From Candidatus Electronema halotolerans (lineage in GTDB: Bacteria; Desulfobacterota; Desulfobulbia; Desulfobulbales; Desulfobulbaceae): a stretch of 32,000 bases of DNA. A program made the position numbers and the translations under genes. Position 1 is the stretch's first letter. The number at the start of each line of letters is the position of its first letter. The DNA is taken from assembly GCA_942493095.1 (NCBI GenBank), contig OW818675.1:2790001-2822000 (forward strand), in the 5' to 3' direction. The notes beneath the pieces are model-generated. The model did not search any database and was not told the DNA's origin. It saw nothing but the letters and a program-made list of their open reading frames with translations. Shown piece by piece: positions 3,683 through 30,296 of this stretch.

Positions 3683-3733
3683 AATGATCAATGAGTTGAT
3701 TTAATACGAAACAATGAATTGAAGCAGAGCCGC

Positions 3734-5062: not shown

Positions 5063-6897
5063 ACCTGTGGTTTCCAAAACGCGGCCAGAATCAGCCTGCT
5101 GAGAGCGATGATATTGTATGTGCCCCAGAAGGTGTTGATGATCACACCGCCGCAGGTGTGCGGCCCTGCGCCGCTGAGAAGCATGCTCCACGCATAGATC
5201 ATGCCGGTCAACGTCAGCAAGGATATGGTGAACTGCGGCAAGACCAAATAAAAGAAATTGCCTTCCTGCCGCTCCTTGGGCGTGACCGGGAATTTAATTC
5301 TTTCGCCTTTGATCACGGTCAGCAGAGCACGCAAATTTACCGAAAAGAAAGCAAGGTACAATGCTTTGCCCGGAAAGCCGTTCAAACCCCAAGTGCCTGT
5401 CATAAAGGCTAATTCTGTAAGCAGCAGAAAGGGCAGGATGTGTTTGAAAAAGTCCGGGGTGTAGGCGGAGACCGGTGAAATGCCGCTGAACAGATAGACG
5501 ATCGGGCCAAGCAGGAAAATCAGGTTCCATATTCCGCCGAGATAGGACCAGAGCGTGGCCCCGTACATCAGCCGCTGGCGCAAGGAAAGGCCGCGCCGGA
5601 AGAGCATCCGGTCCCGCAGCATGATGTCCAAGGTGCCGCCCGCATATTTGAACCGCTGCACCATCCAGCTTTGCAGGTCCTGCGGCGAGAGCATCTTGCT
5701 TTCCACTTCAGGATGCTGCACAGACTTCCAGTGTCGATCCGCATCGCTATGGAGAATGATCGAGGTGTAAATATCTTCAGACACGTGAAATTTATACGGA
5801 GTGAGCGGGATAATTCTTGCTGTATCCAGTCGCTGCGCATATTTCTCCGCAGTTTCTGGATTCAGGTTCTGCTTTACAAAGAACCGCTTAATTTTTTGGT
5901 TCAGTCTCTGCTCCAGCTTGTGCGTATTGTTGACAGTGTCCGAATAGTTTTTCAGTGCCGCCTCCATGACCGCATCCCGGCGATGGATGGAGCCTGCGCC
6001 GCAGCAGAACGCCGCGTTGACCCAGTTGCGCCGCCTCAGAATCACATCATAGAACATCTTGGGATCATTGGTCAAGGGATCATGGCCAATCTGCACCGGC
6101 CCGACCAAGCGTTCAATGCCCCGCGCCAGCCAGCGGCCCAAAGTGCTTTGCCAGACCGAAGACAATGGGCGGCCTTCCGGCAGGTCGTAAAACCATTGCG
6201 GAGTCTGCACCCACGCCACATCAGGATCACGAAAATAACCGAGCGTGTGCTCCAGCAAAGTGGGAAAAGGCCGGGTGTCCGCATCGCAGATGACTATAAG
6301 ATCACCGCTGGTCTGTTCCATTGCATGAGCAAGATTGCCAGCTTTGAAGCCAATGCTGCTGTCGCGGACAATATACTCAACCCCTTCCTCCTCAGCCACC
6401 TGCCGCATGGCTGGCCGACGGCCATCGTCCAGCACATGAATTTTCATTGTCAGCGGAAACGGATAGCTCATCAGCTTGGCATCTTGGATGCTCAGACGGA
6501 CCAGTTCCACATCCTCATTGACCGTGGGAAAGAATATATCCACCTTCAGAGGACGGTCTGGATAATGATCTGGCTGGGCCACACATTCCTTGATGGAATG
6601 TGGCGGTCTGCGACGGGGCGTGTCCTGCACCTTCCAGAGATTGATGGTGAACAGTGCCAGACCGATATAGGCGCAGGTTTCCGCTGCGGCCAATGGGATG
6701 GAAAACCACCACAGCGAGAACCATGTGCCGCTGCTGGCATAATCAATGGAGTAGCACCAGCGCCAGCTAATATACCACGCGCCGACCGCAAGATTCAGGC
6801 TGGCCAGCAGCTGCCAGAGAAATTCGGCAACCGGCTGGACCGGCAGCGGCGGCGGCGGCTGGCGGCTTTCAAATCTGCTGAAATAAAACTCAGGCAT
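5059..6897 (-). CDS. Processive family-2 glycosyltransferase (cellulose/curdlan-synthase-like beta-glycan synthase), no PilZ domain
   Basis: The 612-aa ORF has TM helices on both sides of a GT-A domain. VLDDG (aa 155-159), ICDADT (203-208), HVSEDIYTS (371-379) and QRFKY (414-418) sit where the D, DxD, TED and QxxRW motifs of BcsA-type synthases sit. It lies 9 nt downstream of the acyltransferase stop. Confidence 0.85.
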   Translation of the reverse strand: MPEFYFSRFESRQPPPPLPVQPVAEFLWQLLASLNLAVGAWYISWRWCYSIDYASSGTWFSLWWFSIPLAAAETCAYIGLALFTINLWKVQDTPRRRPPHSIKECVAQPDHYPDRPLKVDIFFPTVNEDVELVRLSIQDAKLMSYPFPLTMKIHVLDDGRRPAMRQVAEEEGVEYIVRDSSIGFKAGNLAHAMEQTSGDLIVICDADTRPFPTLLEHTLGYFRDPDVAWVQTPQWFYDLPEGRPLSSVWQSTLGRWLARGIERLVGPVQIGHDPLTNDPKMFYDVILRRRNWVNAAFCCGAGSIHRRDAVMEAALKNYSDTVNNTHKLEQRLNQKIKRFFVKQNLNPETAEKYAQRLDTARIIPLTPYKFHVSEDIYTSIILHSDADRHWKSVQHPEVESKMLSPQDLQSWMVQRFKYAGGTLDIMLRDRMLFRRGLSLRQRLMYGATLWSYLGGIWNLIFLLGPIVYLFSGISPVSAYTPDFFKHILPFLLLTELAFMTGTWGLNGFPGKALYLAFFSVNLRALLTVIKGERIKFPVTPKERQEGNFFYLVLPQFTISLLTLTGMIYAWSMLLSGAGPHTCGGVIINTFWGTYNIIALSRLILAAFWKPQV

Positions 6898-8903: not shown

Positions 8904-10241
8904 TCAGCCCTTATCCCTGCCACTCCGCTCGCGGAAAAAGAGGCGCAGCGGCACTCGGTCTAAGCCAAGTCCTTCCCGGAAGCGATTGGTGAGATAGCGC
9001 TGATAGGAAAAGTGAATGCCTTTGGGCTGATTGGCAATCACAGCAAAAGTGGGCGGGGCGGTGCTGATCTGGGCTGTGTAGTAGAGTTTCAGGCGGCGGC
9101 CCTGATACATGGGCGGCTCATGCTTGGCTTTGGCCTCCTCCAAGAGCCGGTTGAGAGCCGCAGTGGGGAACCGCTGGGTGAACTGGCGATGGATTTTGCC
9201 GATTTCCGGGAAAAGCCGCTTGATGCCTGCGCCGGTCTTGGCCGAGACCTTGAAAATAGGAACAAAAGGAATGAAGTTGGTTGCCAGTCGCACTTTCTCC
9301 AAGAGCTGCTCCTGCCGTTTCTTGTCACCCTCAAGCAAGTCCCATTTGTTGAGCAGAATCAGCAAGGCGCGGCCCTGCTCCTGGGTATAGCCGATGATCT
9401 TGGTGTCCTGCTCGGCAATGCCCTCGTCTGCGTCAATCAGGACAACTGCTATGTCGCAGCGGCTCAGGGAATGCAGGGCCTTGAGCACGGAGAATTTTTC
9501 CAGCTTGTCGGTGGTCTTGCCCTTGCGCCGGATGCCGGCAGTGTCGATGAGCAGGTAGCTGTGCTGCCCGGCGGTCAGCAGGGTGTCAACGGCATCGCGG
9601 GTGGTGCCGGCCACATCTGAGACCATCATCCGCTCCTGACCCATGATGGCGTTGATCATCGAGGACTTGCCCACATTCGGACGGCCCAGAAAGGCCAGCC
9701 GGACTGTGCCTTCGGGCAGCTCTGCCGGAGTAGCGGTTTTGTCCAATTTTTCCGCCAAGGCTTGCATCAGGGTGTTGAAACCGTAGCCGTGATCTGCGGA
9801 TAAGGCCCAGAGCTGCTCCACGCCCAGCTCCCAGAAAGGCGTGAGCAGCTCGGTTTCAATATCTGGCGAATCAATCTTGTTGACCGCGAAAAAAACAGTC
9901 TTGTCGGTGCGCCGAAGCAGGTCTGCCAGCTCATGGTCGCCGGGCATCACGCCTTGGCGGCCATCAAGCAGGAGAATGATGATGTCCGCCTCCTCCAGAG
10001 CCTGCATGGCCTGGCTGCGGATATGACTGCTGAACTCGTCCCCGTCCTCCTCAATGCCGCCGGTGTCAACCAGCATGAAGGAACGCTCCTCCCACTGGGC
10101 GCGGGCATAGTGCCGGTCGCGGGTCACGCCGGGCAGAGAGTCAACCAGCGCGTCGCGGCTGCGGGTGATGCGGTTGAACAGGGTGGATTTGCCCACATTG
10201 GGGCGGCCCAGCAGGGCGACTAAGGGACAGGCAGTATTCAC
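8904..10241 (-). CDS. der: Ribosome-biogenesis GTPase Der (EngA)
   Basis: The 445-aa ORF has two tandem G domains, each with GRPNVGKS(T/S), DT(G/A)G and NK(I/W)D motifs. A C-terminal KH-like domain follows (YYTAQISTAPPTF..., RFREGLGLDRVPLRLFFRER). Confidence 0.95.
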   Translation of the reverse strand: MNTACPLVALLGRPNVGKSTLFNRITRSRDALVDSLPGVTRDRHYARAQWEERSFMLVDTGGIEEDGDEFSSHIRSQAMQALEEADIIILLLDGRQGVMPGDHELADLLRRTDKTVFFAVNKIDSPDIETELLTPFWELGVEQLWALSADHGYGFNTLMQALAEKLDKTATPAELPEGTVRLAFLGRPNVGKSSMINAIMGQERMMVSDVAGTTRDAVDTLLTAGQHSYLLIDTAGIRRKGKTTDKLEKFSVLKALHSLSRCDIAVVLIDADEGIAEQDTKIIGYTQEQGRALLILLNKWDLLEGDKKRQEQLLEKVRLATNFIPFVPIFKVSAKTGAGIKRLFPEIGKIHRQFTQRFPTAALNRLLEEAKAKHEPPMYQGRRLKLYYTAQISTAPPTFAVIANQPKGIHFSYQRYLTNRFREGLGLDRVPLRLFFRERSGRDKG

Positions 10242-12462: not shown

Positions 12463-12744
12463 TCAGCTCTGAATTATCAATAAAGCACGCTTGGGTGCTC
12501 AGGCTGCCGCCGTTACTATATATGCAGTTTAAAACGTTGTACAGAGGAATCGGCATGTCCTGCTGGCTGCAGAACTGCTTCAGCGCAGTGGAATTGACAA
12601 GGACGGCTGCTGGTCCTTGCCAAGCGCATTGAGCAGGCCGCGTGTGCTGCCTACCGCGAGGAGCTTACCCTGTATCGGCGAATGCCTCAGATTGCCTGCT
12701 GCTGACTTGCAGAATACGTACCTCCTTTGCTGTTTGTCCTGATC

Positions 12745-12752
12745 ACCGACAT
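12745..12752. repeat. Target-site duplication ACCGACAT, left of IS copy 1
   Basis: Identical 8-mer at 14239-14246, immediately outside the other IS end. Confidence 0.85.
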
Positions 12753-14238
12753 GTAACTGATCACAGGGTGTCTCTAAAAAACACTGGCGCTTGGCATCGC
12801 AACTGGATAAATTGTGAGCAGTAATTTTTTCCGCAGGAGAAAGCTGTGACCGCCCCGTTCCATTGTGAAAATTTTGAGATAAGCGAGGAAGACCTTGCCG
12901 CTACACCTCCTGCGGTGCGGAAGCTGCTGTCTTTTTTGATCGCTGAGGTAACGCGGCTGAGAAAACGGGTCGAAGAGCTTGAGGCGAAACTCGGCGAAGA
13001 TTCCTCGAACTCGAACAGGCCGCCTTCTTCCGACTCTCCGTTTACAGAAAAACGGCAGAGAGATCAGGCGGGGAAGCCCCGGAAAAAGCGGCGTGGATAT
13101 CGTCAGGAGCTGATGCCGCCGACAGAAACGCAAAAAATGTATCCTTCCGCCTGCTCCTGCGGTTGCGGCAAATTCAAAAACATACGGTCATATTATACGC
13201 ATCAGCATATTGAACTGCCGGAAATCGTGATGCAGGTCAGGCATTTCCTTCTTTATAAAGGGGAATGCGCCGCCTGCGGCAAAACCGTCAGAGGCTGTGT
13301 TCCCGATGAATTCAGAACCGGTTTCGGGGCGCGGTTCACCGCGCTGGTTGCCGAACTGAGCGGCATGGACGGCAGCAGCCGGGGAACTGTGCGGAAGTTC
13401 ATCCGTTCCGTGCTCGGCGTTCATATCAGTGCCGGGGCGGTGCAGAAGATCATTGACAGGGCTTCGGCGGCTGTCGCGCCGCACTATGAGGCCATTTGGG
13501 CTGCCGTCACAAGCGGGGATGTCGGGCATATTGATGAAACGACGTGGAAAACTGGCGGCAGACTGCGCTGGTTATGGGTTATGGCGAACCGGCAGGCCGC
13601 GTTCTTCATGATTCATCCGAAACGCTCTAAGGAAGCCTTTGAAGAACTGATCGGTGCTTGGAACGGTATTCTCATCAGCGACGGATACAACGTGTACCAA
13701 AAATGGGTCGGCAAGCGGCAGACTTGCCTCGCGCATCTTATCCGCCGGGCAGACGGCCTTGCGGAGCGCGCTGACCCTGAACTGGCCGCCTGCGGCAAAT
13801 GGGCCGCTGCGGAACTGCGGCGGCTCTGCCGCATGGCGAAAGACCCGCCGACCAAAGGTGAATGGTCCGCATTTTATGCCCGGCTCTGCCGACTTATCCT
13901 ACGCTGGCGCGATTGCGACAGTGATGCGGGGAGGTTTGTCCGTCATATTGACAAGGAAATGGAGGCGTTGTTCACTTTCTTGCTCGAAGAAGGCGTAGAG
14001 CCGACAAATAATCCAGCGGAACGGATGCTCCGCTTCGGCGTGCTGTGGCGCAAACGGAGTCAGGGCACTGACAGCGACAAGGGAAACCGCTGGGTTGAAC
14101 GAATCCTTTCCCTCCGGCAGACATGCCTGCTTCGGGGAAAATCCACTTTCGAGGTGCTCACCGAGGCCATGCGCTGCTATTTCAGAGGACAGATGCCGGA
14201 TTTAAGCTGGGTCTGAGCGGTACCCTGTGATCGCTTAC
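12753..14238 (+). mobile_element. IS66-family insertion sequence, single-ORF (ISBst12-like) type, copy 1 (1486 bp)
   Basis: The terminal inverted repeats are GTAACTGATCACAGGGTGTC (12753-) and, at the other end read as its reverse complement, GTAAGCGATCACAGGGTACC (-14238). An 8-bp direct repeat flanks it, as is usual for IS66 elements. It carries one transposase ORF. A second copy lies at 19471-20956. Confidence 0.9.
12846..14216 (+). CDS. IS66-family transposase (TnpC-type)
   Basis: The 456-aa ORF has a GTG start 6 nt after AGGAGA. It has an N-terminal leucine-zipper-like helix (LIAEVTRLRKRVEELEAKL), a Cys cluster (CSCGCGKF...CAACGK) and a DDE-type core (HIDETTW..., ISDGYNVY..., NPAERMLR). 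The predicted protein is identical to that of the ORF at 19493-20863. Confidence 0.9.
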   Translation: MTAPFHCENFEISEEDLAATPPAVRKLLSFLIAEVTRLRKRVEELEAKLGEDSSNSNRPPSSDSPFTEKRQRDQAGKPRKKRRGYRQELMPPTETQKMYPSACSCGCGKFKNIRSYYTHQHIELPEIVMQVRHFLLYKGECAACGKTVRGCVPDEFRTGFGARFTALVAELSGMDGSSRGTVRKFIRSVLGVHISAGAVQKIIDRASAAVAPHYEAIWAAVTSGDVGHIDETTWKTGGRLRWLWVMANRQAAFFMIHPKRSKEAFEELIGAWNGILISDGYNVYQKWVGKRQTCLAHLIRRADGLAERADPELAACGKWAAAELRRLCRMAKDPPTKGEWSAFYARLCRLILRWRDCDSDAGRFVRHIDKEMEALFTFLLEEGVEPTNNPAERMLRFGVLWRKRSQGTDSDKGNRWVERILSLRQTCLLRGKSTFEVLTEAMRCYFRGQMPDLSWV

Positions 14239-16844
14239 ACCGACATTGACCGGACAAGCGGGACAAAAGCCTTCTGGATGATTTCGTATGCCTGCGCAGT
14301 TGCCAGCACAAGCCAGCCTTCGGCACAGACATCGCCTGGAAATCGGTTATGTCGGTGAATGGAACCGTCCTGCCACCAGAGACTTTGCACCATCGGAGAA
14401 CCTTCAGCGTCCTCCCAACTGAAAAGGCCGGTCTTGCTGGATTTCCAGCCCAATCCTAAAGCCAGTTCAGGGTTAAAGGCCAGCCATTCCTGGCTGCCAA
14501 TTTCACGTGCGCGAGGACTTCCAAAAACAGCAACGGCTCGAACAAACTGCATGTGTAAATGCGGATACTCTTCAGCAGTCCACCAGTGTTCAGTCGGAAA
14601 AAAAGAGGGTGCATTGATTGGAGTGTCAAACAACCGCTTATCTGGATGAGCTAACATGCTGAAGCGATATTCAAATTGCTTGTCGTCATCCATCTGGCGA
14701 ATTTGTGTCAGTTCAGCCAATGCTATCAGACCATTTTCTTTGATCTGCTCAGGCATTAAAGCATAGCCATCCGTGCAGCAGCTCGGCCAGTCCTGCTCCC
14801 GAATTTCCTCCTTTCCTGGCAGCAAAATTTCGTTTGGACGCAAAGAAGGACGCTGGCAGGACATCACTTTGTCATTACCTCTGGTCAGCTGGATGAGGAA
14901 TGCCGCATCTTGGCCGCTCAGTTTTTCCGCATCAATTAGCTCGGCAATAACATGGCGCAGGGCTTTTAATGCCTGCTGTGGCCGCAGACGATAATTGACA
15001 AGTTTCAGTTCCGCCGCTTCCAGCCAGTTTCTCATATTTTCTTCAGCCTGTTTGTTCCATTCTTCCTGCGAAGAGAGGCTTTTCATTAAGATGGCAGCAC
15101 GGGCAATCAGATTTTGCAATGGAATGTCGGATGCTTTACTCATCAGGTCAAACAGATAATCAAACGGACGAATCATGTCCAAGGAATCATTCGTATCCGG
15201 GAAGGAACCGCCTTGCGGCAGAGCCTCAAAGGGAACAGCTTCCTCTTGAGTGGGAAAATCTGGCAGCTCCCAGGTGTAGGTGGGCGGCAACGCCGTAAAC
15301 GCGGGCAGAGCAAAGGGCAAATTCAAGGCTTGTGCCAACTGCACCGCCATTGCTCGGATAGTCATATTCGGAGAACTGATCAATGTTTTGAATTCAGCAG
15401 CAAACTCGGCAAGGTATTCCGGTCGTTGTTCCAAAATGGTTTCACAGACCGCCAAGGCATGACGTGCCTCGCTTTCACTGCCAGTCAGCAAATTGCGCAG
15501 TAACTGACTTGATGCGACATCGTATGCAGGAGCGAGACATATCCTGTGCAAGGCGAGATGCGCTTCGGTGCGGATTTCAGGAACCTCAATCTTCATTGCG
15601 TCTGCAACGAGCTGAAGCAGGACGGTCTGCCATGAAGAAATGTTTTCCAACACAGGCGGCGGCATCTCTTCAGAAAGAGAGAACTCGTGGAGCTGGTAAA
15701 CATGTTCTCGAATTTCCTGCCAGATTTTATCAAGTGGTGGGAATGCAAACAGGACTGGAAAAAAATCATCAATGCCTTCTACATATCTTCTTGGCCAATG
15801 CCAGTGGGCAATATAGTCTTTGACGAAACGTTGAAAGGCGTATTTACGGCCTTCTTCACCATCAAACTTGATCATTGCCAGCATCAACTTCAGTCGGATT
15901 CCTCCATCGAAATCTCGGTCCCATCCTCGCGGGTCTGAGCGTTCAGCCAGCTCCTTTAGGAATGCCCGGCCTTCTTTTTCATGGCCCAATGCCTTCAGAC
16001 GCTCTGCCAGCAACATTTCCACCAGAAGATTGCCCTTCAGCGTATCGCGCAACTGCCCAATTTGCGTATAATTGATCGTTTCAGAAATCTTTTCTACGGC
16101 TTCTTCCCAACGAAAATACTTCTGTTCTTCAATTTGATTGATAAAACTCAGAAGAGAGTTGCCGGATGTGATGCGCAACAGGACATCTTTTCTCCTTAGC
16201 TCTTCTCCGTTTTTCAAGCGGATCGCAATATCGTGATCATAGGTTTCCTCTTTGTCGTCCTGCACCACCTTTTCGCAGAAACGTTCAGCATCAATACCAG
16301 CAGCCTGCAAACCTTTGGCAATGCCGCGCCACCACCCGGCCCGATGCGAAGGGAATATCTTGGTGGCAACGGTTTGTTCGAGGTACTCAAGCAGCATCTG
16401 AGCTTCAGTTTCGGAATTCCTTGTGCTGATTGCCTGCGCAAGCACTGCCGGGAGTTTGTCGGGAACGCTATTGGAAAAAGGCAGCAGCAGGTGACAGGCA
16501 AGGATGCAGACCATCTCAATAGAAGCATCGGAAGATGAAGCAGCCGCAGTCAATATGCCGCTTAACGCATCCTCGTAAGCAATGCTGTGCTGATCCAAAA
16601 GCCAGTTTTTGAGCTGCACGGCATAGTCCGGCTGCCATTGTGCGACCAAAGTTATCAGATCAACAGCGGCATCACGGATTCCTCGGCCTCTGTACGTTGT
16701 TACAAAGGTCACAAGAGCAGCAGCAAACCTGCGGATATCCTCTTCTACCAACTCAGGATGTGCCGCCGCAGTCTTTGCCAGCAGATCGACCCAAAAGGAA
16801 AACTGGTAGTCTTTGTCGTAAACCACACCAAAGCTGTTCTGCAA
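14235..16844 (-). CDS. Helical-repeat (HEAT/TPR-like) C-terminal portion of the disrupted STAND gene, or a separate partner ORF; 3' end clipped by IS copy 1
   Basis: The 869-aa ORF uses a TTG 'start' with no SD. It is in the same frame as the upstream ORF and separated from it only by a TAG plus 38 sense codons. Its stop (14235-14237) lies inside the IS terminus. Removing the IS extends the frame by 19 codons to a TGA at 12687-12689. Confidence 0.6.
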   Translation of the reverse strand: MQNSFGVVYDKDYQFSFWVDLLAKTAAAHPELVEEDIRRFAAALVTFVTTYRGRGIRDAAVDLITLVAQWQPDYAVQLKNWLLDQHSIAYEDALSGILTAAASSSDASIEMVCILACHLLLPFSNSVPDKLPAVLAQAISTRNSETEAQMLLEYLEQTVATKIFPSHRAGWWRGIAKGLQAAGIDAERFCEKVVQDDKEETYDHDIAIRLKNGEELRRKDVLLRITSGNSLLSFINQIEEQKYFRWEEAVEKISETINYTQIGQLRDTLKGNLLVEMLLAERLKALGHEKEGRAFLKELAERSDPRGWDRDFDGGIRLKLMLAMIKFDGEEGRKYAFQRFVKDYIAHWHWPRRYVEGIDDFFPVLFAFPPLDKIWQEIREHVYQLHEFSLSEEMPPPVLENISSWQTVLLQLVADAMKIEVPEIRTEAHLALHRICLAPAYDVASSQLLRNLLTGSESEARHALAVCETILEQRPEYLAEFAAEFKTLISSPNMTIRAMAVQLAQALNLPFALPAFTALPPTYTWELPDFPTQEEAVPFEALPQGGSFPDTNDSLDMIRPFDYLFDLMSKASDIPLQNLIARAAILMKSLSSQEEWNKQAEENMRNWLEAAELKLVNYRLRPQQALKALRHVIAELIDAEKLSGQDAAFLIQLTRGNDKVMSCQRPSLRPNEILLPGKEEIREQDWPSCCTDGYALMPEQIKENGLIALAELTQIRQMDDDKQFEYRFSMLAHPDKRLFDTPINAPSFFPTEHWWTAEEYPHLHMQFVRAVAVFGSPRAREIGSQEWLAFNPELALGLGWKSSKTGLFSWEDAEGSPMVQSLWWQDGSIHRHNRFPGDVCAEGWLVLATAQAYEIIQKAFVPLVRSMSV
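14239..14246. repeat. Target-site duplication ACCGACAT, right of IS copy 1
   Basis: Matches 12745-12752. Confidence 0.85.
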
Positions 16845-16958
16845 AATCTTCGGAAAGAGCGTCTTTGCCCTTTCCCGCTGTCCCGCCTCCAGCCAAGCAA
16901 AAATTTGCTCTGCATATTCTGAGGCTAGGGTGCCGACATCGTCCCAAACACCATAACG

Positions 16959-19343
16959 CTATTCAATTCGATCCAGATGCCCTTGTAGATTTTCCTTTGA
17001 ACACCCCTGACGGAACAGCTCCAAGGCTATTTTTCGTTGCAGCCGGGGTTGCCAGTATTGAGGCTGCTCCTGCCAGAGTCGGTCAAATTCCGCTTCCAAT
17101 GCCTGAACTGCTGCCGGACCATGTTCGGCAACAGCACGAATGAGGAACGAAAAGAACTCGCTGGCCAATCGTTCATAGGCAAACCAGGAATGCCATTGCC
17201 GAGTATCCTGCCGCCTGCGATAGTACAAACGCAAAGCGGGCTGCAATTCGTGCAGAAGCATAGTCGGGGGCAATAGCTCGCCAGCCCAAGCCCTGCCCCA
17301 GATATTGGCGATGATAACCAAGCAGCGTTCAAACAGAACAGCACCATGCTCTTGCACCTTGTCATCAGGCACTGCCTGCACCGGGTCTTCAGGCCGACCA
17401 AGCATTGCCAGCAAGCGGTTGAGACGGATACGAGCAAAAAAAGGTGTGAGTCTGCCGTCATTTCCGTGCATGACACCAGCAAGAGTCAGCCTAGGCTGTC
17501 GGATACTTGCTATTGTTTCGGCTACCGTCTCTTTATCCTTGCGGATATGATAAATAAATTGAGAAATCAGTAGCTTGGTGTCATCATCATGCTCTGGTGT
17601 TGTTTGTTCCTCTAAGATGCGGGTAAGTGCTTCCTTGGCATTATCGGAATCAGGACGGAAAGAGCATATCCAGAAATCCAGTTTACGCAGGAGCCATTGA
17701 CTCTCTTCACGTCTCTTGAGCTGTTCTTTCAGTTGGGAAAGTTTATCGGCATCATTGCTGTTAAAGACAGCATAGGTCAGTTTCTCAAGCACGTTCTGCC
17801 TGAGTTCCTCATGCAAAGAATCAGAATCAGCAGCGTCATGGGGCTGCATATAATGTGTGTCAGCCCGAAGCTGCGTTATGATTTGCAGCAGATTATCCAG
17901 CGGACGAAAATAGTGAGCAATTTTTATCCAAGAGTCCAGAGTGTCCTTGTTTCCATTGATATGACCAATTTCCGTTGAGCCATTGAGCAGATCAAGCGGT
18001 TCGGCTGCATTGAACACTGACTCTGCCGCCCGCAGTTCGCCTTTTTCGATGAGCAGCGCGGCGAAATCAAGGGCATCTTTTGCAGCAATCCGCAACTGAT
18101 TCCCGTCCATGACAAAATGCAGAGCCTCATCCAAACCGCGAAGCTCAAGGAGCAGCCTTGGCAAATTCACGTCAGAGGAATCAATACACTCTTTTCGGTC
18201 GCTCAACTCTTTTTCAATCAGCAGGGCGCGGATGATTGCCAATCCGTCATACTGCTTACGGGCCGCATCAAAACAGAGCTTGATATCCTCAAAAATGGCC
18301 GTTGCAGGTCTGAGGCGCATGAACTGATCGCGGAAATGCTGCTGGGTGCCGAGCCGAAGAACAGCCTCCCATTCTTCCGCCTTTGCCCGATGGTACAGCT
18401 CTTCCCATGCCCAAAAAATTTCTGAAGAAGCCGCGAATTCAGCAAGACGGCGATGATATTCCCTGTCTTTTTCCGCATCCTCGTCACCAAAAATATTGCG
18501 CCGGGTTTGTGCAAGGATGAACTGGCGGAAGCTGTTGTGAAAGAAATGCCAACGGGTTTCTGTCTCTTCACGAAAATAATGGCGGGCATGTCGCAGCAAA
18601 TCCTTGATGACAGGCTCTCCCATCCGCCCCAGCCATTCCTTCGGATTGAACGGCCCTCTCAGTCTCGCCAACAGGGCAAGCAGGTCTTTCAGTTCCTCAT
18701 TATTCTCAAGCTGCTCCCAGTAAATACGATAAGTTGCCTCTATGTTCTCATGATAAGGAACCGTGTCGGCAAGAACGGCATCAATTTTTTCTTCAGCGGT
18801 ATTGCGAAGACGTTCCAGTAAATAGCGAAGTGTCAGCGGATGCCCGTTGACAAGCTGATGCACTGTTTCCTGCTGTGCCGAACTGAGCTGCACCGGCAAG
18901 CGGGATGCGCTAATGATGGCGGCCACAGCCTGTCTGGGCAACGGCTGCATGGTGAGCGTCCGCCCTGTTTGTTCGACTTGCTGCCGAATGCGGGAAGGGA
19001 AATCCGCAAGCTGCAAGGTCTGGCTGCCAAGGATCAGCAGCACTCCTTCAGGGAGATTGTCCGGTGACGGCAGCTCATTGAGCAGGCTTCTGACCGGCCT
19101 TTGCTCCCGTGCAATATGATCAAGCCCGTCAATAACGAGCAGAGTCATGATCTTGTCCTGCTGCCATTGTTCGTGCAGGCTCCTCAATTGTGCAGAGAAT
19201 GCTTCCCGAAATTCCTCCAGTGTCTTCGGCTGGGAGGGCTTCCCGGTTTGGGCGTAAATTTCCTGTCGCTGCAAGGCCAGATGCAGGTCGTGCAGAAAAG
19301 AAACAGCTTCGCCTCTGCCTTCCTGCCCGATGCTTTCCGGCAC
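16959..19343 (-). CDS. Central fragment of the disrupted STAND NTPase (Walker B to helical sensor region); lacks its P-loop because of IS copy 2
   Basis: The 794-aa ORF starts at an internal GTG. It contains TLLVIDGLDH (Walker B), LLILGSQ, and GHPLTLRYL (GxP motif of NACHT/NB-ARC-type STAND ATPases), followed by long alpha-helical repeats. The frame stays open upstream to the IS boundary, where it encodes GPPGTGKST. Confidence 0.7.
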   Translation of the reverse strand: MPESIGQEGRGEAVSFLHDLHLALQRQEIYAQTGKPSQPKTLEEFREAFSAQLRSLHEQWQQDKIMTLLVIDGLDHIAREQRPVRSLLNELPSPDNLPEGVLLILGSQTLQLADFPSRIRQQVEQTGRTLTMQPLPRQAVAAIISASRLPVQLSSAQQETVHQLVNGHPLTLRYLLERLRNTAEEKIDAVLADTVPYHENIEATYRIYWEQLENNEELKDLLALLARLRGPFNPKEWLGRMGEPVIKDLLRHARHYFREETETRWHFFHNSFRQFILAQTRRNIFGDEDAEKDREYHRRLAEFAASSEIFWAWEELYHRAKAEEWEAVLRLGTQQHFRDQFMRLRPATAIFEDIKLCFDAARKQYDGLAIIRALLIEKELSDRKECIDSSDVNLPRLLLELRGLDEALHFVMDGNQLRIAAKDALDFAALLIEKGELRAAESVFNAAEPLDLLNGSTEIGHINGNKDTLDSWIKIAHYFRPLDNLLQIITQLRADTHYMQPHDAADSDSLHEELRQNVLEKLTYAVFNSNDADKLSQLKEQLKRREESQWLLRKLDFWICSFRPDSDNAKEALTRILEEQTTPEHDDDTKLLISQFIYHIRKDKETVAETIASIRQPRLTLAGVMHGNDGRLTPFFARIRLNRLLAMLGRPEDPVQAVPDDKVQEHGAVLFERCLVIIANIWGRAWAGELLPPTMLLHELQPALRLYYRRRQDTRQWHSWFAYERLASEFFSFLIRAVAEHGPAAVQALEAEFDRLWQEQPQYWQPRLQRKIALELFRQGCSKENLQGHLDRIE

Positions 19344-19462
19344 GTAAGCGTAGTAACGAATAATTTTGTAGCCGGGGCGATAGCGGAAGGTCTGCGTCAG
19401 GGTGGTGGATTTTCCGGTTCCCGGCGGGCCGATCAGGGCCAGATAGCCGGAGTTGAACTGTG

Positions 19463-19470
19463 CCGCAGCC
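19463..19470. repeat. Target-site duplication CCGCAGCC, left of IS copy 2
   Basis: Identical 8-mer at 20957-20964. Confidence 0.85.
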
Positions 19471-20956
19471 GTAAGCGATCACAGGGTACCGCTCAGACCC
19501 AGCTTAAATCCGGCATCTGTCCTCTGAAATAGCAGCGCATGGCCTCGGTGAGCACCTCGAAAGTGGATTTTCCCCGAAGCAGGCATGTCTGCCGGAGGGA
19601 AAGGATTCGTTCAACCCAGCGGTTTCCCTTGTCGCTGTCAGTGCCCTGACTCCGTTTGCGCCACAGCACGCCGAAGCGGAGCATCCGTTCCGCTGGATTA
19701 TTTGTCGGCTCTACGCCTTCTTCGAGCAAGAAAGTGAACAACGCCTCCATTTCCTTGTCAATATGACGGACAAACCTCCCCGCATCACTGTCGCAATCGC
19801 GCCAGCGTAGGATAAGTCGGCAGAGCCGGGCATAAAATGCGGACCATTCACCTTTGGTCGGCGGGTCTTTCGCCATGCGGCAGAGCCGCCGCAGTTCCGC
19901 AGCGGCCCATTTTCCGCAGGCAGCCAGTTCAGGGTCAGCGCGCTCCGCAAGGCCGTCTGCCCGGCGGATAAGATGCGCGAGGCAAGTCTGCCGCTTGCCG
20001 ACCCATTTTTGGTACACGTTGTATCCGTCGCTGATGAGAATACCGTTCCAAGCGCCGATCAGTTCTTCAAACGCTTCCTTGGAGCGTTTCGGATGAATCA
20101 TGAAGAACGCGGCCTGCCGGTTCGCCATAACCCATAACCAGCGCAGTCTGCCGCCAGTTTTCCACGTCGTTTCATCAATATGCCCGACATCCCCGCTTGT
20201 GACGGCAGCCCAAATGGCCTCATAGTGCGGCGCGACAGCCGCCGAAGCCCTGTCAATGATCTTCTGCACCGCCCCGGCACTGATATGAACGCCGAGCACG
20301 GAACGGATGAACTTCCGCACAGTTCCCCGGCTGCTGCCGTCCATGCCGCTCAGTTCGGCAACCAGCGCGGTGAACCGCGCCCCGAAACCGGTTCTGAATT
20401 CATCGGGAACACAGCCTCTGACGGTTTTGCCGCAGGCGGCGCATTCCCCTTTATAAAGAAGGAAATGCCTGACCTGCATCACGATTTCCGGCAGTTCAAT
20501 ATGCTGATGCGTATAATATGACCGTATGTTTTTGAATTTGCCGCAACCGCAGGAGCAGGCGGAAGGATACATTTTTTGCGTTTCTGTCGGCGGCATCAGC
20601 TCCTGACGATATCCACGCCGCTTTTTCCGGGGCTTCCCCGCCTGATCTCTCTGCCGTTTTTCTGTAAACGGAGAGTCGGAAGAAGGCGGCCTGTTCGAGT
20701 TCGAGGAATCTTCGCCGAGTTTCGCCTCAAGCTCTTCGACCCGTTTTCTCAGCCGCGTTACCTCAGCGATCAAAAAAGACAGCAGCTTCCGCACCGCAGG
20801 AGGTGTAGCGGCAAGGTCTTCCTCGCTTATCTCAAAATTTTCACAATGGAACGGGGCGGTCACAGCTTTCTCCTGCGGAAAAAATTACTGCTCACAATTT
20901 ATCCAGTTGCGATGCCAAGCGCCAGTGTTTTTTAGAGACACCCTGTGATCAGTTAC
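19471..20956 (-). mobile_element. IS66-family insertion sequence, copy 2 (1486 bp, inverted relative to copy 1)
   Basis: It has the same termini as copy 1. My hand alignment of the two copies found only 5 nucleotide differences. It is flanked by its own 8-bp duplication. Confidence 0.9.
19493..20863 (-). CDS. IS66-family transposase (TnpC-type), copy 2
   Basis: The 456-aa product is identical to that of 12846-14216. Confidence 0.9.
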   Translation of the reverse strand: MTAPFHCENFEISEEDLAATPPAVRKLLSFLIAEVTRLRKRVEELEAKLGEDSSNSNRPPSSDSPFTEKRQRDQAGKPRKKRRGYRQELMPPTETQKMYPSACSCGCGKFKNIRSYYTHQHIELPEIVMQVRHFLLYKGECAACGKTVRGCVPDEFRTGFGARFTALVAELSGMDGSSRGTVRKFIRSVLGVHISAGAVQKIIDRASAAVAPHYEAIWAAVTSGDVGHIDETTWKTGGRLRWLWVMANRQAAFFMIHPKRSKEAFEELIGAWNGILISDGYNVYQKWVGKRQTCLAHLIRRADGLAERADPELAACGKWAAAELRRLCRMAKDPPTKGEWSAFYARLCRLILRWRDCDSDAGRFVRHIDKEMEALFTFLLEEGVEPTNNPAERMLRFGVLWRKRSQGTDSDKGNRWVERILSLRQTCLLRGKSTFEVLTEAMRCYFRGQMPDLSWV

Positions 20957-21812
20957 CCGCAGCCTTTTCCAGTTCCTGAACAGTTCCGGTGATCGGCTGA
21001 TAGATGCTTTGCTCGACCGGGAATTCATGTTTGAAGCGGAATTCAAAACGAGATTCCCAGCTCAACTCCTTCAGCAGCTCTGTTCGAGTGACTTCAGCAA
21101 CACGACGTTCTCCGCCGCCAAGTCGGGCAATCAGCCGGGCAATGGCTTCAATATCCTGCTCCCGCTGTGCCTCCGAGCGGGACATTACCCCATCTTGCTG
21201 CGAAAATTGATAGTTGAAATAGAGAAAACTGGCATCAATAAAGGCAAGAAAGTCAGCGTCGTCCAATCCTGTTTCCTGCCGCACAGCCTCTATTGCCGAA
21301 GACCAGCCCTGCGGAATGCCCGATAAACCTTTGTGCAGCCATTCTCTCTTTGCCTGCCAGCAATCGCGAATAAATGCCTGAAAGTTTTGTTGCCGAGGCG
21401 GCGAATCATCAAGTGGAAGTTTGATTTCTGGAGGTTTTTTTGGTGAAGGAAGGTGACGGTGGATAAGATGAACCAGAACTCGTCGTTCAGGATATTGCTT
21501 TTTTAAAGCAGACCAGCCATCAGCAAGTTGCAGTATCAGACTGGGGTTCGCTTTGTTTTTGCCGCTGGAACGGATGAAGTCGGCAAATGAGATAAATTCA
21601 ACCTTATCAGACCATTTGACCTGATAGGCAAGCAGTTGCCCATCTGTTGTGGCAACAAGAATATCGTCAACGCGCCCGGCGTTCGGATCGGCTATGTGAA
21701 ACCATTCAAGCCTGCCTTGGATAAGGAGGTCATAGATCAGGATGGCTGCACATTTATCCTGCGGCTCAAAGCCGATTCTTGCGTTGCGTTCACCGTCTGC
21801 CGGGTTCAGCAT
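20949..21812 (-). CDS. N-terminal fragment of the disrupted STAND gene: Cap4/DUF4297-like PD-(D/E)xK nuclease domain
   Basis: The 287-aa ORF has an ATG with GAGGTG upstream. RIGFEPQD, VDDILV and AYQVKW resemble the GFxYQ ... D ... QxK signature of DUF4297/Cap4-type endonuclease domains. The last codons (G-N-stop) are supplied by the IS terminus. Confidence 0.6.
   Translation of the reverse strand: MLNPADGERNARIGFEPQDKCAAILIYDLLIQGRLEWFHIADPNAGRVDDILVATTDGQLLAYQVKWSDKVEFISFADFIRSSGKNKANPSLILQLADGWSALKKQYPERRVLVHLIHRHLPSPKKPPEIKLPLDDSPPRQQNFQAFIRDCWQAKREWLHKGLSGIPQGWSSAIEAVRQETGLDDADFLAFIDASFLYFNYQFSQQDGVMSRSEAQREQDIEAIARLIARLGGGERRVAEVTRTELLKELSWESRFEFRFKHEFPVEQSIYQPITGTVQELEKAAGN
20957..20964. 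repeat. Target-site duplication CCGCAGCC, right of IS copy 2
   Basis: Matches 19463-19470. Confidence 0.85.
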
Positions 21813-21884: not shown

Positions 21885-24290
21885 TCATTGAAGGGGTGCT
21901 GGATTCAACTCAGCAAAGCGCGGCAGGAGCAGCCCGGCGAGCATGTAGAGCAGGAAGGCGGCGTAAACTGTCATCGTGAAGCCGATATAGATGGCGGCAA
22001 CCACACTCAGGACACTGCCGAGCACGGTGCAGAGGCCGTTCACTGCCCACGCCCAGCCCACTGCGCCCCGGCCCTTGTTATGGGAACCAGCAATGCCAAG
22101 GGCAAAGGGCATGCCCATGAAGACACCGAGCGGGAAAATCAGCAGCACCGTGGCGAGAATGCGGACTGGGGTCGGCCACTGGAGGAAGAAGTCGAGCAGC
22201 GGTGTTTTGAGCAGCATCAGGAGGAGGCCGCAGAACGGAATGCCGACAAAAGGCAGCAGCCGGGCCAGCCGTTTTTGCGATAAGGCCAAGGCATCGCAAA
22301 GCCAACTGCCCGCGCCTGCGGCCAGCAGGAAGGCAAAGACCACGCCTGCATAGGTGTAGAGCGGATAGCCAACCAGCTTGTGAAAGAACTGAATGAAGAT
22401 CAGCTCAATGGTGATGAAGCCCGCGCCCAGGCAGGCAAAGTAGGCGATAAAAGCAGGCTTGCCGCTCCACTTGGCCCGGCCTGTGGCGGAAAAGAGCAGC
22501 GGCCCGAACAGGCAGACTGCTGCCAAGGCCAAGGCGGCTCCGGCAGTGACGATCAGATGGATAATATCCATCGGCACCCCATGCTTGATGGAGTTGTTGA
22601 GCAGCACGCTGACGGAGCGGTCAACATACGGCTCTTTGCCGGAAACCGGCCCCAGATGCTTGCGCAGGTGGTTGAAAAAAGGCCGGTCATCAGTCGGCAC
22701 CTCAATCCGGTAGGGGATATTGGCCTCCAGCTCCGGCGGCAGCTGGCCCGTGAAAAAGCCAGGGGCGATGTGGCTGGCCTTTGGCTGGAGCGGATTATGG
22801 ACCAGCTTGAATTTACCGTGCATCAGCGCGTTCACACGGTCAAACTCCTCCTGCGTCCACGGTGACATCTTGATCAGCAGGGTGGGCAGATTGGCCCAAG
22901 CCGCAGAATAGTAGATCAGGACATGACGGGCAAAGTCCTTCCGGCCCATCTCGCTCCACGCTCTGGCAGCAGTGAGCAGCATCTTGGCCCAGACATGATG
23001 ATTGACATGCAGAACCCCGTTTGCGCTCAGATGGCTGAAGTATTCTTTATAGGCCTCAACCGTCTGGAGATAATTGGGCGAGACCGCACCGGAGCCGGAG
23101 GCAATGCTGGCCGAGGTGTGGTTGGACATCATCTGAATGATGTCATAGGATTTGTTGCTGGCCCGCAGGAAGCTGCGCCCCTCGCCTTGGACAGCGTTCA
23201 CCTTGGGATTGGTGTACGGTTCAACCGCATATTTTTCTTTGCCCAGCCGGATTACCGATCCCACCAGCTCGACCGCATCGACCTCGCTGGCTCCAAAGGC
23301 CACAGCAGCCTTGGTTTCCTGCCCGCCTGCCGCGCCAATGACCAGCACCTTGGCTCCGCTACCCTCTTTCAGCCAGTGCGAGGCAAAGACAAAGCGGCCC
23401 CAGAAGTGGCGGTTCGATTTTTGCGGCAGCTCGCGGCGCAGCTTTTGGTAATCACCGTCAAAATCATAGAAATAGCTGGTCTGGGTGCCGCCGTCATAAG
23501 CGATCCACGTGAACAGGTCGCTGTAGCGGATCAGATCAATACGGGAAATGCGGTCCCAAACCGTGAGCAAGGGCGGTTTTTCAGTCAGGGAGATGATGCC
23601 CCGCTTGTTCATATGGAAAGGAATTTCTAAATAATCGCTGTGTCCTTTGCCGATGAACGGCCATGCTGCTGTGAAAATGGCCAGCAAAAGCAGGGGAATC
23701 CTGAATCGGTTTTGGCGCAGCAGCAGAACAGCACCGATCAAGGTCAGTCCGGCCACAGCAAAGAGCAGGCCCGGCCCGCCAAAGGTGGGAATCAGCAATG
23801 GCACTAAGATGCAGCCGAGCGAGGCTCCGGCCAAGTCCCAAGCGTAGAGCCTGCCAAAGCGTTCCGCATGTTCGGTGAAAATCAAAGACAGGATCAGGCC
23901 GCTGAGAAAGAAGGGTGCCAGCAGGCCGCTGAAAGCGACAAAGACTCGCAGAGCCAAGGAGCTGATGCTCTTGAAGTCAATGAAATCAACCTTGAACACA
24001 CTGAGCAGGATAAAGACACCGACATAGCTTGCTGCCAAAGTCACGGTCAGCAGCACGGCCAGCGGCTGCCGCCAGACAAGTCGCTCGGCCAGCACTGAGG
24101 TGACAACTCCGGCAATGCCAAAGCCGAGCAGGGCCAAGGTGATGACCATGTAGGAAAAATGGGGATACCAAAGAATATCCAGCACCCGGATCAGGCTCAG
24201 TTCGTAGAACAGGGTTGAGAGGGCGATCAGGGCGACATAGCCGCCTGTTGCCTCGAACTTGCTCTGAGGCTGCGCTGAAAGATTTGTCAT
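21885..24290 (-). CDS. Polytopic membrane protein with a spermidine-synthase-like (SAM-dependent aminopropyltransferase fold) domain
   Basis: The 801-aa ORF has many TM helices at both ends. The central soluble part has the Rossmann-type segment VLVIGAAGGQETKAAVAFGASEVDAVELV. This is the architecture of proteins usually annotated as fused MFS/spermidine synthase. Confidence 0.6.
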   Translation of the reverse strand: MTNLSAQPQSKFEATGGYVALIALSTLFYELSLIRVLDILWYPHFSYMVITLALLGFGIAGVVTSVLAERLVWRQPLAVLLTVTLAASYVGVFILLSVFKVDFIDFKSISSLALRVFVAFSGLLAPFFLSGLILSLIFTEHAERFGRLYAWDLAGASLGCILVPLLIPTFGGPGLLFAVAGLTLIGAVLLLRQNRFRIPLLLLAIFTAAWPFIGKGHSDYLEIPFHMNKRGIISLTEKPPLLTVWDRISRIDLIRYSDLFTWIAYDGGTQTSYFYDFDGDYQKLRRELPQKSNRHFWGRFVFASHWLKEGSGAKVLVIGAAGGQETKAAVAFGASEVDAVELVGSVIRLGKEKYAVEPYTNPKVNAVQGEGRSFLRASNKSYDIIQMMSNHTSASIASGSGAVSPNYLQTVEAYKEYFSHLSANGVLHVNHHVWAKMLLTAARAWSEMGRKDFARHVLIYYSAAWANLPTLLIKMSPWTQEEFDRVNALMHGKFKLVHNPLQPKASHIAPGFFTGQLPPELEANIPYRIEVPTDDRPFFNHLRKHLGPVSGKEPYVDRSVSVLLNNSIKHGVPMDIIHLIVTAGAALALAAVCLFGPLLFSATGRAKWSGKPAFIAYFACLGAGFITIELIFIQFFHKLVGYPLYTYAGVVFAFLLAAGAGSWLCDALALSQKRLARLLPFVGIPFCGLLLMLLKTPLLDFFLQWPTPVRILATVLLIFPLGVFMGMPFALGIAGSHNKGRGAVGWAWAVNGLCTVLGSVLSVVAAIYIGFTMTVYAAFLLYMLAGLLLPRFAELNPAPLQ

Positions 24291-28712: not shown

Positions 28713-28766
28713 AGTGCCGCAGTCTGCTCCTTGTTTGTCAATCCAGCCGTTCCGACGGTTTTTTTC

Positions 28767-30296
28767 ATGCGTTTTCCCATTCTGCTGATCACAGTCGCAG
28801 TTCTCCTGCTGCCGCCCCTGTCCTGCACCGCCGCCTGTCTGTCCGGCGACTGCCGCAACGGGACCGGCAGGCTGCGCAGCGCGGATGGACGCGAATATGA
28901 AGGAGAATTTAAAAACGGCTTTCTCTGGGGCAAAGGTGCTCTGACCACGGCTGACGGGCTGCGCTACACTGGTCAGTTTGTCAAAGGCCGCTTTCAGGGT
29001 CTGGGCACCTTGAAGAGTAAGGACGGCAGAACCTATCAGGGCCAGTTCGCACGCGGGGTGATCAACGGGCATGGCAGGCTGGTCGAGCCGGACGGACGCA
29101 TCTATCAGGGCGAATTTGTCATGGGCCGTTTTCATGGCCAAGGAGTCCTGAAGTGGCCGGACGGGCGCAAATATGCAGGCAGCTTTCGGGACGGCCAGCC
29201 TTATGGCCGGGGCAGAATGACCCTGCCGGACGGCAGTTTTTATGAAGGCAATTTCGAGGAAGGCAGGCCGGTCGGCGAAATTGTCCGCCGTTATGCGGAC
29301 GGCAGCTTGTACCGGGGCAGCCTTGTCGCAGGTCTGCGGGAGGGAAAAGGCTTTCTCAAGCTGCCGGATGGCGGCCGCTATGCTGGGTTTTTTCATAAAG
29401 ACAAGTATGAAGGTCAAGGCCGCCTGACTGCGGCGGATGGCCGGGTCCTCTATGAAGGTGAGTTCCACCTTGGCAAGCCAACGGCCCGGCGGCGGCCAGT
29501 TCAACCGCCAAAAGCGGCGGCGGCGCAGAAACCTGCTGATGCAGCCAGCATCAAAATTGCCCCCTTGACCGCCGTGGATGGCGAGCCAATGCTGGCCGAG
29601 CCGCTGCATGACACTCCGGCCCCAGCTCCGCCTGCGCCGAAGATCAGCAGTCCGCCTCAGGCAGGCCAGAAAAAACTCTTCTTTGCCCAAAACGGCTTGA
29701 TTTATCTGCGGGAAAACAATCAGCCTGCGCTCTTCACCGGCACAGCGGACATTGAGCGGTCAGATGGCTCCTTGTATCAGGGCGAGATCAAACAGGGCCG
29801 CTTGCAGGGCTGGGGCACTCTCCAGCTGCCCAACCGCGAAATTTATGAAGGCGAATTCAAGAACGGCGAATTTGACGGTCAGGGCACCTATGTTTTTGCC
29901 GACGGCAGGCAGTACACTGGCTCCTTCCGGCATGGCGCACGGGAGGGACATGGTCTGCTGACCTATCCAGACGGCTCCTCTTATGAAGGCGATTTTGCCA
30001 AAGACGTGTATGAAGGCAAAGGCACCTATATTTTCCCGGACGGCAGCAAGTATGTCGGCGAGCTGTCTGGCGGCTTTTTCTCCGGCCAAGGCACGCTGAC
30101 CTATAAGAACGGAAAAAAATACACGGGGTCTTTTCAACATGATCTGCCCAATGGCCAAGGAACCCTGATCATGCCGGACGGCAGTGTCTATAAAGGCATG
30201 TTCAAGGCTGGCAAACGCAACGGCAAGGGTGCTGTCACCCAGCCGGACGGGCGGGTGGTCAGGGGCCTGTTCAAGAATGACGAACTTGTCAAATAA
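28767..30296 (+). CDS. Secreted MORN-repeat protein (two MORN arrays joined by a Pro/Ala-rich linker)
   Basis: The start is the ATG at 28767, giving MRFPILLITVAVLLLPPLSCTAA; the track TTG start is 28731. There are about 17 repeats of Y.G.F..G...G.G with a 23-aa period. The linker is KPTARRRPVQPPKAAAAQKPAD...APAPPAPKISSPPQ. Confidence 0.85.
   Translation: MRFPILLITVAVLLLPPLSCTAACLSGDCRNGTGRLRSADGREYEGEFKNGFLWGKGALTTADGLRYTGQFVKGRFQGLGTLKSKDGRTYQGQFARGVINGHGRLVEPDGRIYQGEFVMGRFHGQGVLKWPDGRKYAGSFRDGQPYGRGRMTLPDGSFYEGNFEEGRPVGEIVRRYADGSLYRGSLVAGLREGKGFLKLPDGGRYAGFFHKDKYEGQGRLTAADGRVLYEGEFHLGKPTARRRPVQPPKAAAAQKPADAASIKIAPLTAVDGEPMLAEPLHDTPAPAPPAPKISSPPQAGQKKLFFAQNGLIYLRENNQPALFTGTADIERSDGSLYQGEIKQGRLQGWGTLQLPNREIYEGEFKNGEFDGQGTYVFADGRQYTGSFRHGAREGHGLLTYPDGSSYEGDFAKDVYEGKGTYIFPDGSKYVGELSGGFFSGQGTLTYKNGKKYTGSFQHDLPNGQGTLIMPDGSVYKGMFKAGKRNGKGAVTQPDGRVVRGLFKNDELVK

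Follow-up and report, generated by a model that had tools for sequence, protein, structure and literature searches.

A probable antiviral STAND receptor gene broken by two insertion sequences and a nonsense codon in Candidatus Electronema halotolerans

In this work, we describe the remains of a large gene in a 32,000-nucleotide stretch of the genome of Candidatus Electronema halotolerans (contig OW818675.1, positions 2,790,001 to 2,822,000). This whole stretch is referred to as the window, and coordinates are counted from its first nucleotide. The minus strand of 12687-21812 very likely holds what is left of one gene for a single-protein receptor of the antiviral STAND (Avs) type, which is an NLR-like protein. 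The gene has clearly been inactivated three times, by two copies of an insertion sequence (IS) and by an in-frame TAG codon. A sequence-only reading of the window had proposed that such a gene could be reassembled from three ‘hypothetical’ open reading frames (ORFs) by excising the two IS copies. Both of these repairs are correct, but the TAG had been overlooked. Because of this internal stop codon, the single gene requires three repairs, not two. The coordinates of the gene, its parts and its lesions are given in Table 1.

Reconstruction of the gene and its lesions

Once both IS copies are deleted, each together with one copy of its flanking duplication, the minus strand from 21812 to 12687 reads as one 6.1-kb frame of 2045 codons. 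Deleting 19471-20964 and 12753-14246 and translating the result, a check that the sequence-only reading had suggested, gives 1119 codons, the TAG and a further 925 codons in a single minus-strand frame, which ends at the stop at 12687-12689. The first ORF (20949-21812) ends in ELEKAAGN and a stop, of which the last two codons and the stop are supplied by the terminus of IS copy 2; it had been said to terminate only because it reads into the IS, and this is what we find. Deletion of 19471-20964 fuses it in frame with the ORF at 16959-19343. The junction then translates as LEKAA followed directly by AQFNSGYLALIGPPGTGKSTTLTQTFRYRPGYKIIRYYAYVPESIGQ, which matches the predicted join exactly (in its longer form it reads ELEKAA followed by AQFNSGYLALIGPPGTGKS). 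The second deletion, 12753-14246, carries the frame on through an orphaned tail to the stop codon. The residues of this tail, IRTNSKGGTYSASQQQAI, are the same in the matching stretch of a homologue (P0002) in a 16-sequence alignment.

A search with the 2045-amino-acid (aa) reconstruction identified 558 homologues at E<=1e-3. Among the best 120 of these 558, all but seven are 1994-2106 aa long, and of these all but one cover 97-100% of the reconstruction. Within the same 120 the identity ranges from 79% down to 30%, and Methanosarcina barkeri is included. The idea that one gene was split over three ORFs and two IS copies is borne out by the intact homologues of 2040-2090 aa, which cover 99-100% of the reconstruction. 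Many such full-length proteins span the IS junctions, and the 16-sequence alignment runs without gaps through both junctions and the stop. A single 2045-codon frame, combined with intact homologues of about 2050 aa that align ungapped across the junctions and the stop, indicates that the reconstruction is not a product of chance.

Table 1. Features of the reconstructed gene and its lesions in the window
Feature	Positions	Strand	Basis
Whole ancestral gene: Cap4-like nuclease, STAND NTPase and large sensor	12687..21812	-	In-silico reconstruction; full-length homologues
Effector domain, aa 1-282: Cap4/DUF4297-type PD-(D/E)xK fold, D49-D50...Q64-V-K66	20965..21812	-	AlphaFold2 model; Foldseek; invariant residues
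IS copy 2, IS66 family, single ORF, transposase 19493-20863	19471..20956	-	Inverted-repeat search; reading of ends; Pfam
STAND NTPase module, aa ~284-773	18000..19470	-	PADLOC Avs1b; Pfam; motifs
In-frame TAG, codon 1120 (third lesion)	16959..16961	-	Reconstruction; homologue alignment
C-terminal half of sensor, aa 1121-2024: helical repeats, then beta-rich domain	14247..16958	-	AlphaFold2 model; Foldseek
IS copy 1, IS66 family, transposase 12846-14216	12753..14238	+	Inverted-repeat search; reading of ends; Pfam
Orphaned 3' end of gene, ...(MSV)IRTNSKGGTYSASQQQAI then stop	12687..12752	-	Translation; alignment with homologue P0002

The TAG is the only internal stop of the frame and separates the second ORF (16959-19343) from the third (14235-16844). 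The two closest homologues both have Gln at this position, therefore the codon is most simply explained by a CAG to TAG nonsense mutation. TAG is also the ordinary terminator of another gene in the window (2885-3691). Could it be a natural boundary here too? In that case the locus would be a two-gene system with a split sensor, consisting of a 1119-aa protein (nuclease, NTPase and N-lobe) and a C-lobe protein of about 900 aa, and its lesions would be the IS copies only. A split-TPR (tetratricopeptide repeat) variant of Avs1 is mentioned in PMC13601566, and a small number of proteins in the database, about 900-960 aa long, start near the equivalent position. That said, both closest homologues read through with Gln. 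The first possible start after the TAG is a TTG at 16844. It lies inside a conserved block, and the 38 codons that separate it from the TAG are likewise conserved as coding sequence. The split examples that we examined turned out to be a truncation at a contig edge (locus L086) and a frameshifted gene (locus L087), whose homology carries on in a different frame. Given the homologues that read through and the explanations for these two loci, we reject a natural split gene as very improbable.

The three lesions fall in different parts of the protein. IS copy 2 is inserted in codons 283-285, some 11-14 residues ahead of the P-loop, and parts the nuclease from the ATPase. The TAG cuts the sensor short. 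IS copy 1 sits exactly after codon 2024 and severs the last 21 codons. Either IS copy 2 or the TAG on its own is enough to destroy the protein; IS copy 1 costs it only a poorly conserved tail. The gene had already been called dead, and this verdict stands. As the 6.1-kb frame is clean but for these three lesions, the inactivation is recent. The N-terminal fragment truncated by IS copy 2 recurs unchanged on short contigs of two sequencing runs.

The two IS copies form the one long inverted repeat of the window, with arms of 1486 nt each (12753-14238 and 19471-20956). Both are flanked by target duplications in the form of perfect 8-bp direct repeats, ACCGACAT at 12745-12752 and 14239-14246 for copy 1, and CCGCAGCC at 19463-19470 and 20957-20964 for copy 2. 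Their termini, which start GTAA, are the inverted repeats GTAACTGATCACAGGGT and GTAAGCGATCACAGGGT. Each copy encodes a transposase in one ORF of 456 aa (Pfam DDE_Tnp_IS66, 2.5e-34; DUF6444, zf-IS66 below cut-off). The features of IS66 membership are thus present, namely the DDE_Tnp_IS66 transposase, the 8-bp duplications and the terminal inverted repeats. In contrast to canonical IS66 elements, these copies are only 1486 bp long and do not have the three-ORF layout (tnpA, tnpB, tnpC), as the accessory ORFs tnpA and tnpB are lacking. A lone 456-aa ORF in 1486 bp is compatible with a single-ORF subgroup of IS66, which we take to be the ISBst12-like one.

The copies differ at five positions (13628, 13637, 13655, 13787 and 13796 in copy 1) that lie within 170 bp. 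All five are synonymous third codon positions, hence both copies encode the very same transposase protein. This pattern points to a patch of gene conversion or to two source copies that had diverged slightly, with the transposase under purifying selection. Because each copy retains its own matched pair of duplications, the copies were inserted separately, and we have excluded an inversion between them on these grounds.

Two near-identical, inverted IS copies that bracket 5232 bp may also call to mind a composite transposon with a 5.2-kb internal fragment, or an assembly artefact of a repeated IS, and the short-read contigs of the same samples do stop at the IS ends. We judge both of these extremely improbable. 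Each copy has a perfect 8-bp direct duplication of its own around it, the five synonymous differences mean that the copies are not collapsed repeats, and the DNA outside and between the copies forms one continuous reading frame.

The sole match of the element in a plasmid collection, and hence its nearest plasmid-borne relative, is distant (66% identical over 39% of the length). An exact look-up of the transposase protein returned no record, and the literature, searched for the IS load of cable bacteria, yielded nothing useful. An IS-free, empty site was sought in relatives through synteny with the Der GTPase gene; gene order around der is not kept in the two relatives examined.

Domains of the reconstructed protein and their relation to Avs systems

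The reconstruction has the tripartite plan of Avs proteins in one polypeptide, with an effector (aa 1-282), an NTPase (aa 279-773) and a sensor that extends to aa 2045. The N-terminus had been proposed to be a DUF4297-type nuclease. Structure and invariant motifs agree with this, although a sequence hidden Markov model does not (Pfam Cap4_nuclease, PF14130, E=0.23). We built an AlphaFold2 model of aa 1-282 with 42 homologues (predicted local distance difference test, pLDDT, 85.2; predicted TM score, pTM, 0.81). Its best PDB matches, found with Foldseek, are all Cap4-type nucleases. The top match is SeAvs3 (8dgc_A, E=5.6e-7, TM score of the query, TMq, 0.53), followed by Cap4 (7yib, E=1.7e-6), HamA of Hachiman (8zue, E=1.5e-5), LmuA of Lamassu (9hr5, E=7e-4) and AbCap4 (6wan, E=6e-3).

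The motifs that were first noticed, GFEPQ, VDDILV and YQVKW, contain the invariant residues G14, Q18, D49, D50, Q64 and K66. W67 is invariant as well, and the catalytic D-D...Q-x-K is invariant across the 42 sequences. The nucleases of Cap4, HamA and LmuA have both the fold and the G..Q...DD...QxK signature in common with this domain. They differ in their partners: here the domain is fused to a STAND ATPase, whereas Cap4, HamA and LmuA are combined instead with a SAVED domain or with a helicase or SMC partner. One homologue (P0078) matches the PADLOC model SAVED_PDDEXK, which is of Cap4 type, at 7e-4 over aa 18-106. Overall, the evidence supports a Cap4-type PD-(D/E)xK nuclease by fold, and the domain is predicted to act as a DNase.

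The central module is the part of the protein that is recognised by sequence. The Walker A motif GPPGTGKS (aa 297-304, window 19407-19430) begins 14 residues past the junction, where such a loop had been noted at about 15. Also as noted before, Walker B (LLVIDGLDH, aa 393-401, window 19116-19142) and the GxP motif (GHPLTL, aa 492-497) follow downstream. All three are intact, and they are invariant or nearly so in the 42 homologues. The PADLOC model of Avs1b (PDLC02159) matches aa 279-773 with its positions 211-695 of 1924 (E=5.8e-32). The corresponding NCBIfam model (NF041810) matches our closest intact homologue, P0001 (78% identity), at E=4e-29 over model positions 214-693 of 1931, and the NTPases of four diverse homologues match Avs1b likewise, with E-values between 1e-28 and 5e-31. 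Pfam adds AAA_22 and NPHP3_N above their cut-offs, with AAA_16 and NACHT just below theirs. The Avs1b match, along with AAA_22 and NPHP3_N, supports the earlier assignment of this module to the STAND NTPases.

The complete sensor comprises about 1270 aa, up to aa 2045, and is made of helical repeats and a beta-rich end domain (aa ~1860-2024, window 14247-14741). It had been described as matching nothing recognisable, perhaps with a new specificity, and here the earlier reading has to be revised. The AlphaFold2 model of its C-terminal 904 aa (aa 1121-2024; pLDDT 87.9, pTM 0.89) specifically resembles the terminase-binding sensor of SeAvs3, the top Foldseek match (8dgc_A/B, E ~8e-8, TMq 0.52/0.48). 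All remaining matches, among them karyopherins, SF3B1 and pentatricopeptide repeat proteins, have TMq <=0.20 and E-values of 3e-4 or worse. This contrast between SeAvs3 and other solenoids provides an internal check that the match is more than generic solenoid similarity. With a fold like that of SeAvs3, the sensor can no longer be called unrecognisable. Its identity to the most distant homologues is about 24-27%, compared to 33-41% for the nuclease domain, and the faster divergence of the sensor is a pattern typical of immune receptors.

Two known systems invite a closer comparison. SeAvs3 from Salmonella enterica (PDB 8DGC) has the same tripartite plan and a chain of 2028 residues, against 2045 aa here, and it is the best structural match of the nuclease and sensor models alike. 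That said, the structural identity is only 12-13%, and no sequence similarity is detectable. In the case of Avs1b, the NTPase and the helical region that follows it are homologous to ours, and the model of about 1930 positions is similar in length to this protein. However, only model positions 211-695 of 1924 are matched, and the sensor goes unmatched by sequence. The NCBIfam Avs1b model is furthermore named a protease, whereas the present protein has a Cap4-type nuclease at its N-terminus. An NTPase that is Avs1b-like by sequence, combined with a nuclease and a sensor that are Avs3-like by fold, places the protein in an Avs1/Avs3-like group. The family fails strict sequence tests for both Avs1b and Avs3, and is left unnamed by sequence-based annotation.

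Avs1, Avs2 and Avs3 sense the large terminase of phages. SeAvs3 tetramerises upon binding, after which its Cap4-like nuclease degrades double-stranded DNA, and the structure of Avs1 reportedly resembles that of Avs3. The demonstrated part of our explanation for the locus consists of its lesions, its ancestry in a single gene, the folds and motifs of the protein, and the scattered distribution of standalone relatives. By analogy with SeAvs3, we propose how the intact receptor may have worked. The sensor would grip a conserved protein of the phage, for which the large terminase subunit is the most probable candidate. The central STAND ATPase would serve as an oligomerisation switch, and ATP-dependent oligomerisation would bring the N-terminal effectors, Cap4-type PD-(D/E)xK DNA endonucleases, together. 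Indiscriminate cleavage of double-stranded DNA would then abort the infection.

The large terminase is probably the likeliest ligand of the sensor, judging from the resemblance to SeAvs3. A somewhat unlikely alternative is that this same dead Avs-type gene encoded a receptor for something else, as a member of a separate Avs family with its own specificity. The sensor is without sequence similarity to the Avs1b and Avs3 models or to SeAvs3, the Foldseek TM score is only about 0.5, and a 2026 survey describes 589 STAND clades with at least 90 structurally distinct defence-associated families, among them the Cap4-bearing Avs7 (PMC13581612). According to the same survey, structurally distinct Avs sensor families number at least 90, and different ones of similar TPR architecture sense different proteins. 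On the other hand, no other structure matches the two ends of the protein nearly as well or as specifically as SeAvs3. The NTPase is closest to Avs1b, and Avs1 reportedly resembles Avs3 in structure, both of which sense terminase. The length of 2045 aa is also close to that of the SeAvs3 chain. A further idea goes beyond the ligand. The proteins of about 2050 aa may form a distinct, unnamed Avs family on an Avs3-like scaffold, perhaps with another phage ligand. The triple inactivation here, along with the truncations that are frequent elsewhere, could then be due not to neutral decay but to selection against a receptor that is costly or causes autoimmunity. We offer this idea as a rather doubtful one.

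Several observations weigh against the identification of the locus as a terminase-sensing Avs gene. The Pfam match of the N-terminus to Cap4_nuclease scores 12.0 bits, below the cut-off of 26.2. It is a sub-threshold alignment of aa 48-115 with profile positions 38-98, and the only Pfam match of the domain at E<=10; NCBIfam gave no match to the domain. In the full-length test of the NCBIfam Avs1b model, P0001 reaches 100.5 bits against a curated cut-off of 1500. The PADLOC Avs3 models match neither the reconstruction at E<=0.1 nor any of the homologues scanned, and the sensor has no sequence match in Pfam or PADLOC. When the profile of the family was compared with PDB sequences, it retrieved, at E<=1, P-loop matches and a weak match to HamA (E=0.32) only, and SeAvs3 was not found. 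A TM score of 0.52 with a root-mean-square deviation of about 14 A is a fold resemblance and no proof of a common ligand. The structure models span aa 1-282 and aa 1121-2024, with sensor residues 774-1120 outside them, and the PDB set runs to April 2026, so that newer Avs structures, e.g. Avs7, may be absent from it. We found no experimental report on the family of about 2050 aa. Finally, the window is no defence island; the flanks of the gene are housekeeping genes.

Distribution of the family and genomic context

Relatives of the protein are encoded at 223 loci in a set with one genome per species (185,579 species). These come from the Thermodesulfobacteriota, the Gamma-, Alpha- and Betaproteobacteria, Nitrospira, Chloroflexota, Acidobacteriota, Bacteroidota, Planctomycetota and Cyanobacteria, and from archaea. 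Homologues are also found on plasmids of Nitrosococcus, Vibrio cholerae, Rhizobium, Agrobacterium and Sinorhizobium, and 10 of the 16 matching plasmid records are conjugative. With the C-terminal 904 aa as the query, we matched 889 cluster representatives (50% identity) at E<=1e-3; at E<=1e-10 the number falls to 629. Nearly all full-length representatives are about 2050 aa long and carry the sensor half in the same position, which indicates a fixed architecture. In the searches made here, the proteins of the family carried no annotation more specific than ‘ATP-binding protein’ or ‘hypothetical’.

When the ORFs flanking 79 loci were compared all against all, no conserved neighbour gene emerged, therefore we consider this a standalone, single-gene system. 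The commonest cluster of flanking ORFs is present at 7 of the 79 loci, with no fixed position or orientation. The three members of this cluster that were scanned (two histidine kinases and a Lon protease) share only a response-regulator receiver domain. The R subunit of a type I restriction system, RadC or YhcG is found at about 6 of the 79 loci, and resolvases at 4 of them.

These neighbourhoods bear on whether the gene belongs to immunity at all. It could instead encode a signalling or regulatory STAND ATPase in which the nuclease-like domain is no effector. The housekeeping flanks in the window would suit such a protein, as would the fact that only a minority of the homologous loci adjoin restriction genes, and defence and non-defence STAND clades are known to be interspersed (PMC13581612). 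We nevertheless think this highly unlikely. The catalytic D-D...Q-x-K is invariant across 42 sequences, and defence proteins are the best structural matches at both ends of the protein. The distribution is patchy across the domains of life and includes plasmids, and there are frequent independent truncations elsewhere, as expected of costly defence genes. An antiviral receptor therefore remains our preferred reading of the locus.

Truncated relatives were encountered repeatedly. The homologues P0023, P0076 and P0079 are cut short at differing places, and the family alignment does not extend into their tails; P0079 is present on 40 contigs. Locus L087 (640-800) has its frameshift near the equivalent of the TAG position. 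Loss of this gene thus appears to recur across genomes.

The neighbours of two relatives are worth recording. P0001 is encoded directly downstream of small Gp49, HTH_37 and PhdYeFM genes (L001, 8835-9859), and we read the Gp49/HTH_37 pair as a HigB/HigA-like toxin-antitoxin arrangement. The second is WP_172692825.1, an ‘ATP-binding protein’ of 2021 aa on the IncC plasmid p24845-Ct2 of Enterobacter hormaechei (L083, NZ_MF344572.1, 5941-12006). It is a full-length remote homologue (hhalign E=3e-138, 1942 aligned columns) that has the same Avs1b match, confined to the NTPase, as this family. The identity is only 22%, however, and tblastn detects only residues 5-809. Its gene directly follows that of a 1020-aa DEAD/DEAH helicase with weak matches to PbeA and to a type I restriction endonuclease, and on this multidrug-resistance plasmid the two may form a plasmid-borne defence pair.

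In the window itself, the flanking genes encode the Der GTPase, a glycosyltransferase, an acyltransferase, two DUF3131 paralogues, PPK2, ArgJ, CvpA and an ABC permease. The G+C content of the gene is about 50%, compared to 53-57% in the flanks, and the chromosomal context of P0001 is unrelated to that in the window. The low G+C content and the differing contexts fit a horizontal acquisition. The Der/EngA GTPase (8904-10241, minus strand) is 85-86% identical to that of Candidatus Electronema sp. and close relatives, 83% to that of Desulfobulbus sp. F5 and 77-79% to those of Candidatus Electrothrix, which places the host within the Desulfobulbaceae, near the freshwater cable bacteria.

Some of the other genes deserve a brief mention. 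The Avs-like gene is directly preceded, on its own strand and across a gap of 72 bp, by an ORF of 801 aa (21885-24290, minus strand) that is rich in hydrophobic stretches and has no Pfam match at E<=1e-4. The DUF3131 paralogues (1371-2855 and 3734-5191, minus strand) flank a pentapeptide-repeat protein (2885-3691), and a family-2 glycosyltransferase and an acyltransferase adjoin this DUF3131 cluster (1371-5191); the region is possibly a glycan-modification cluster. A MORN-repeat-rich protein of 521 aa (28731-30296, plus strand; Pfam MORN, 3.5e-74) explains a direct repeat, D2, at 29843-30052.

In summary, three ‘hypothetical’ ORFs and two transposase genes very probably resolve to one pseudogenised NLR-like immune receptor. 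PADLOC, NCBIfam and Pfam detect only its ATPase core, and IS-aware reconstruction can thus retrieve defence genes that are overlooked by per-ORF annotation and standard profile libraries. The family is a large one, with 629 or more clusters at 50% identity (E<=1e-10), and its effector and sensor are recognisable only structurally. The current view of Avs biology is left unchanged, as the gene belongs to a known kind of defence protein. For the Desulfobulbaceae, it would provide an example, in a relative of the cable bacteria, of the loss of a costly single-gene defence system.

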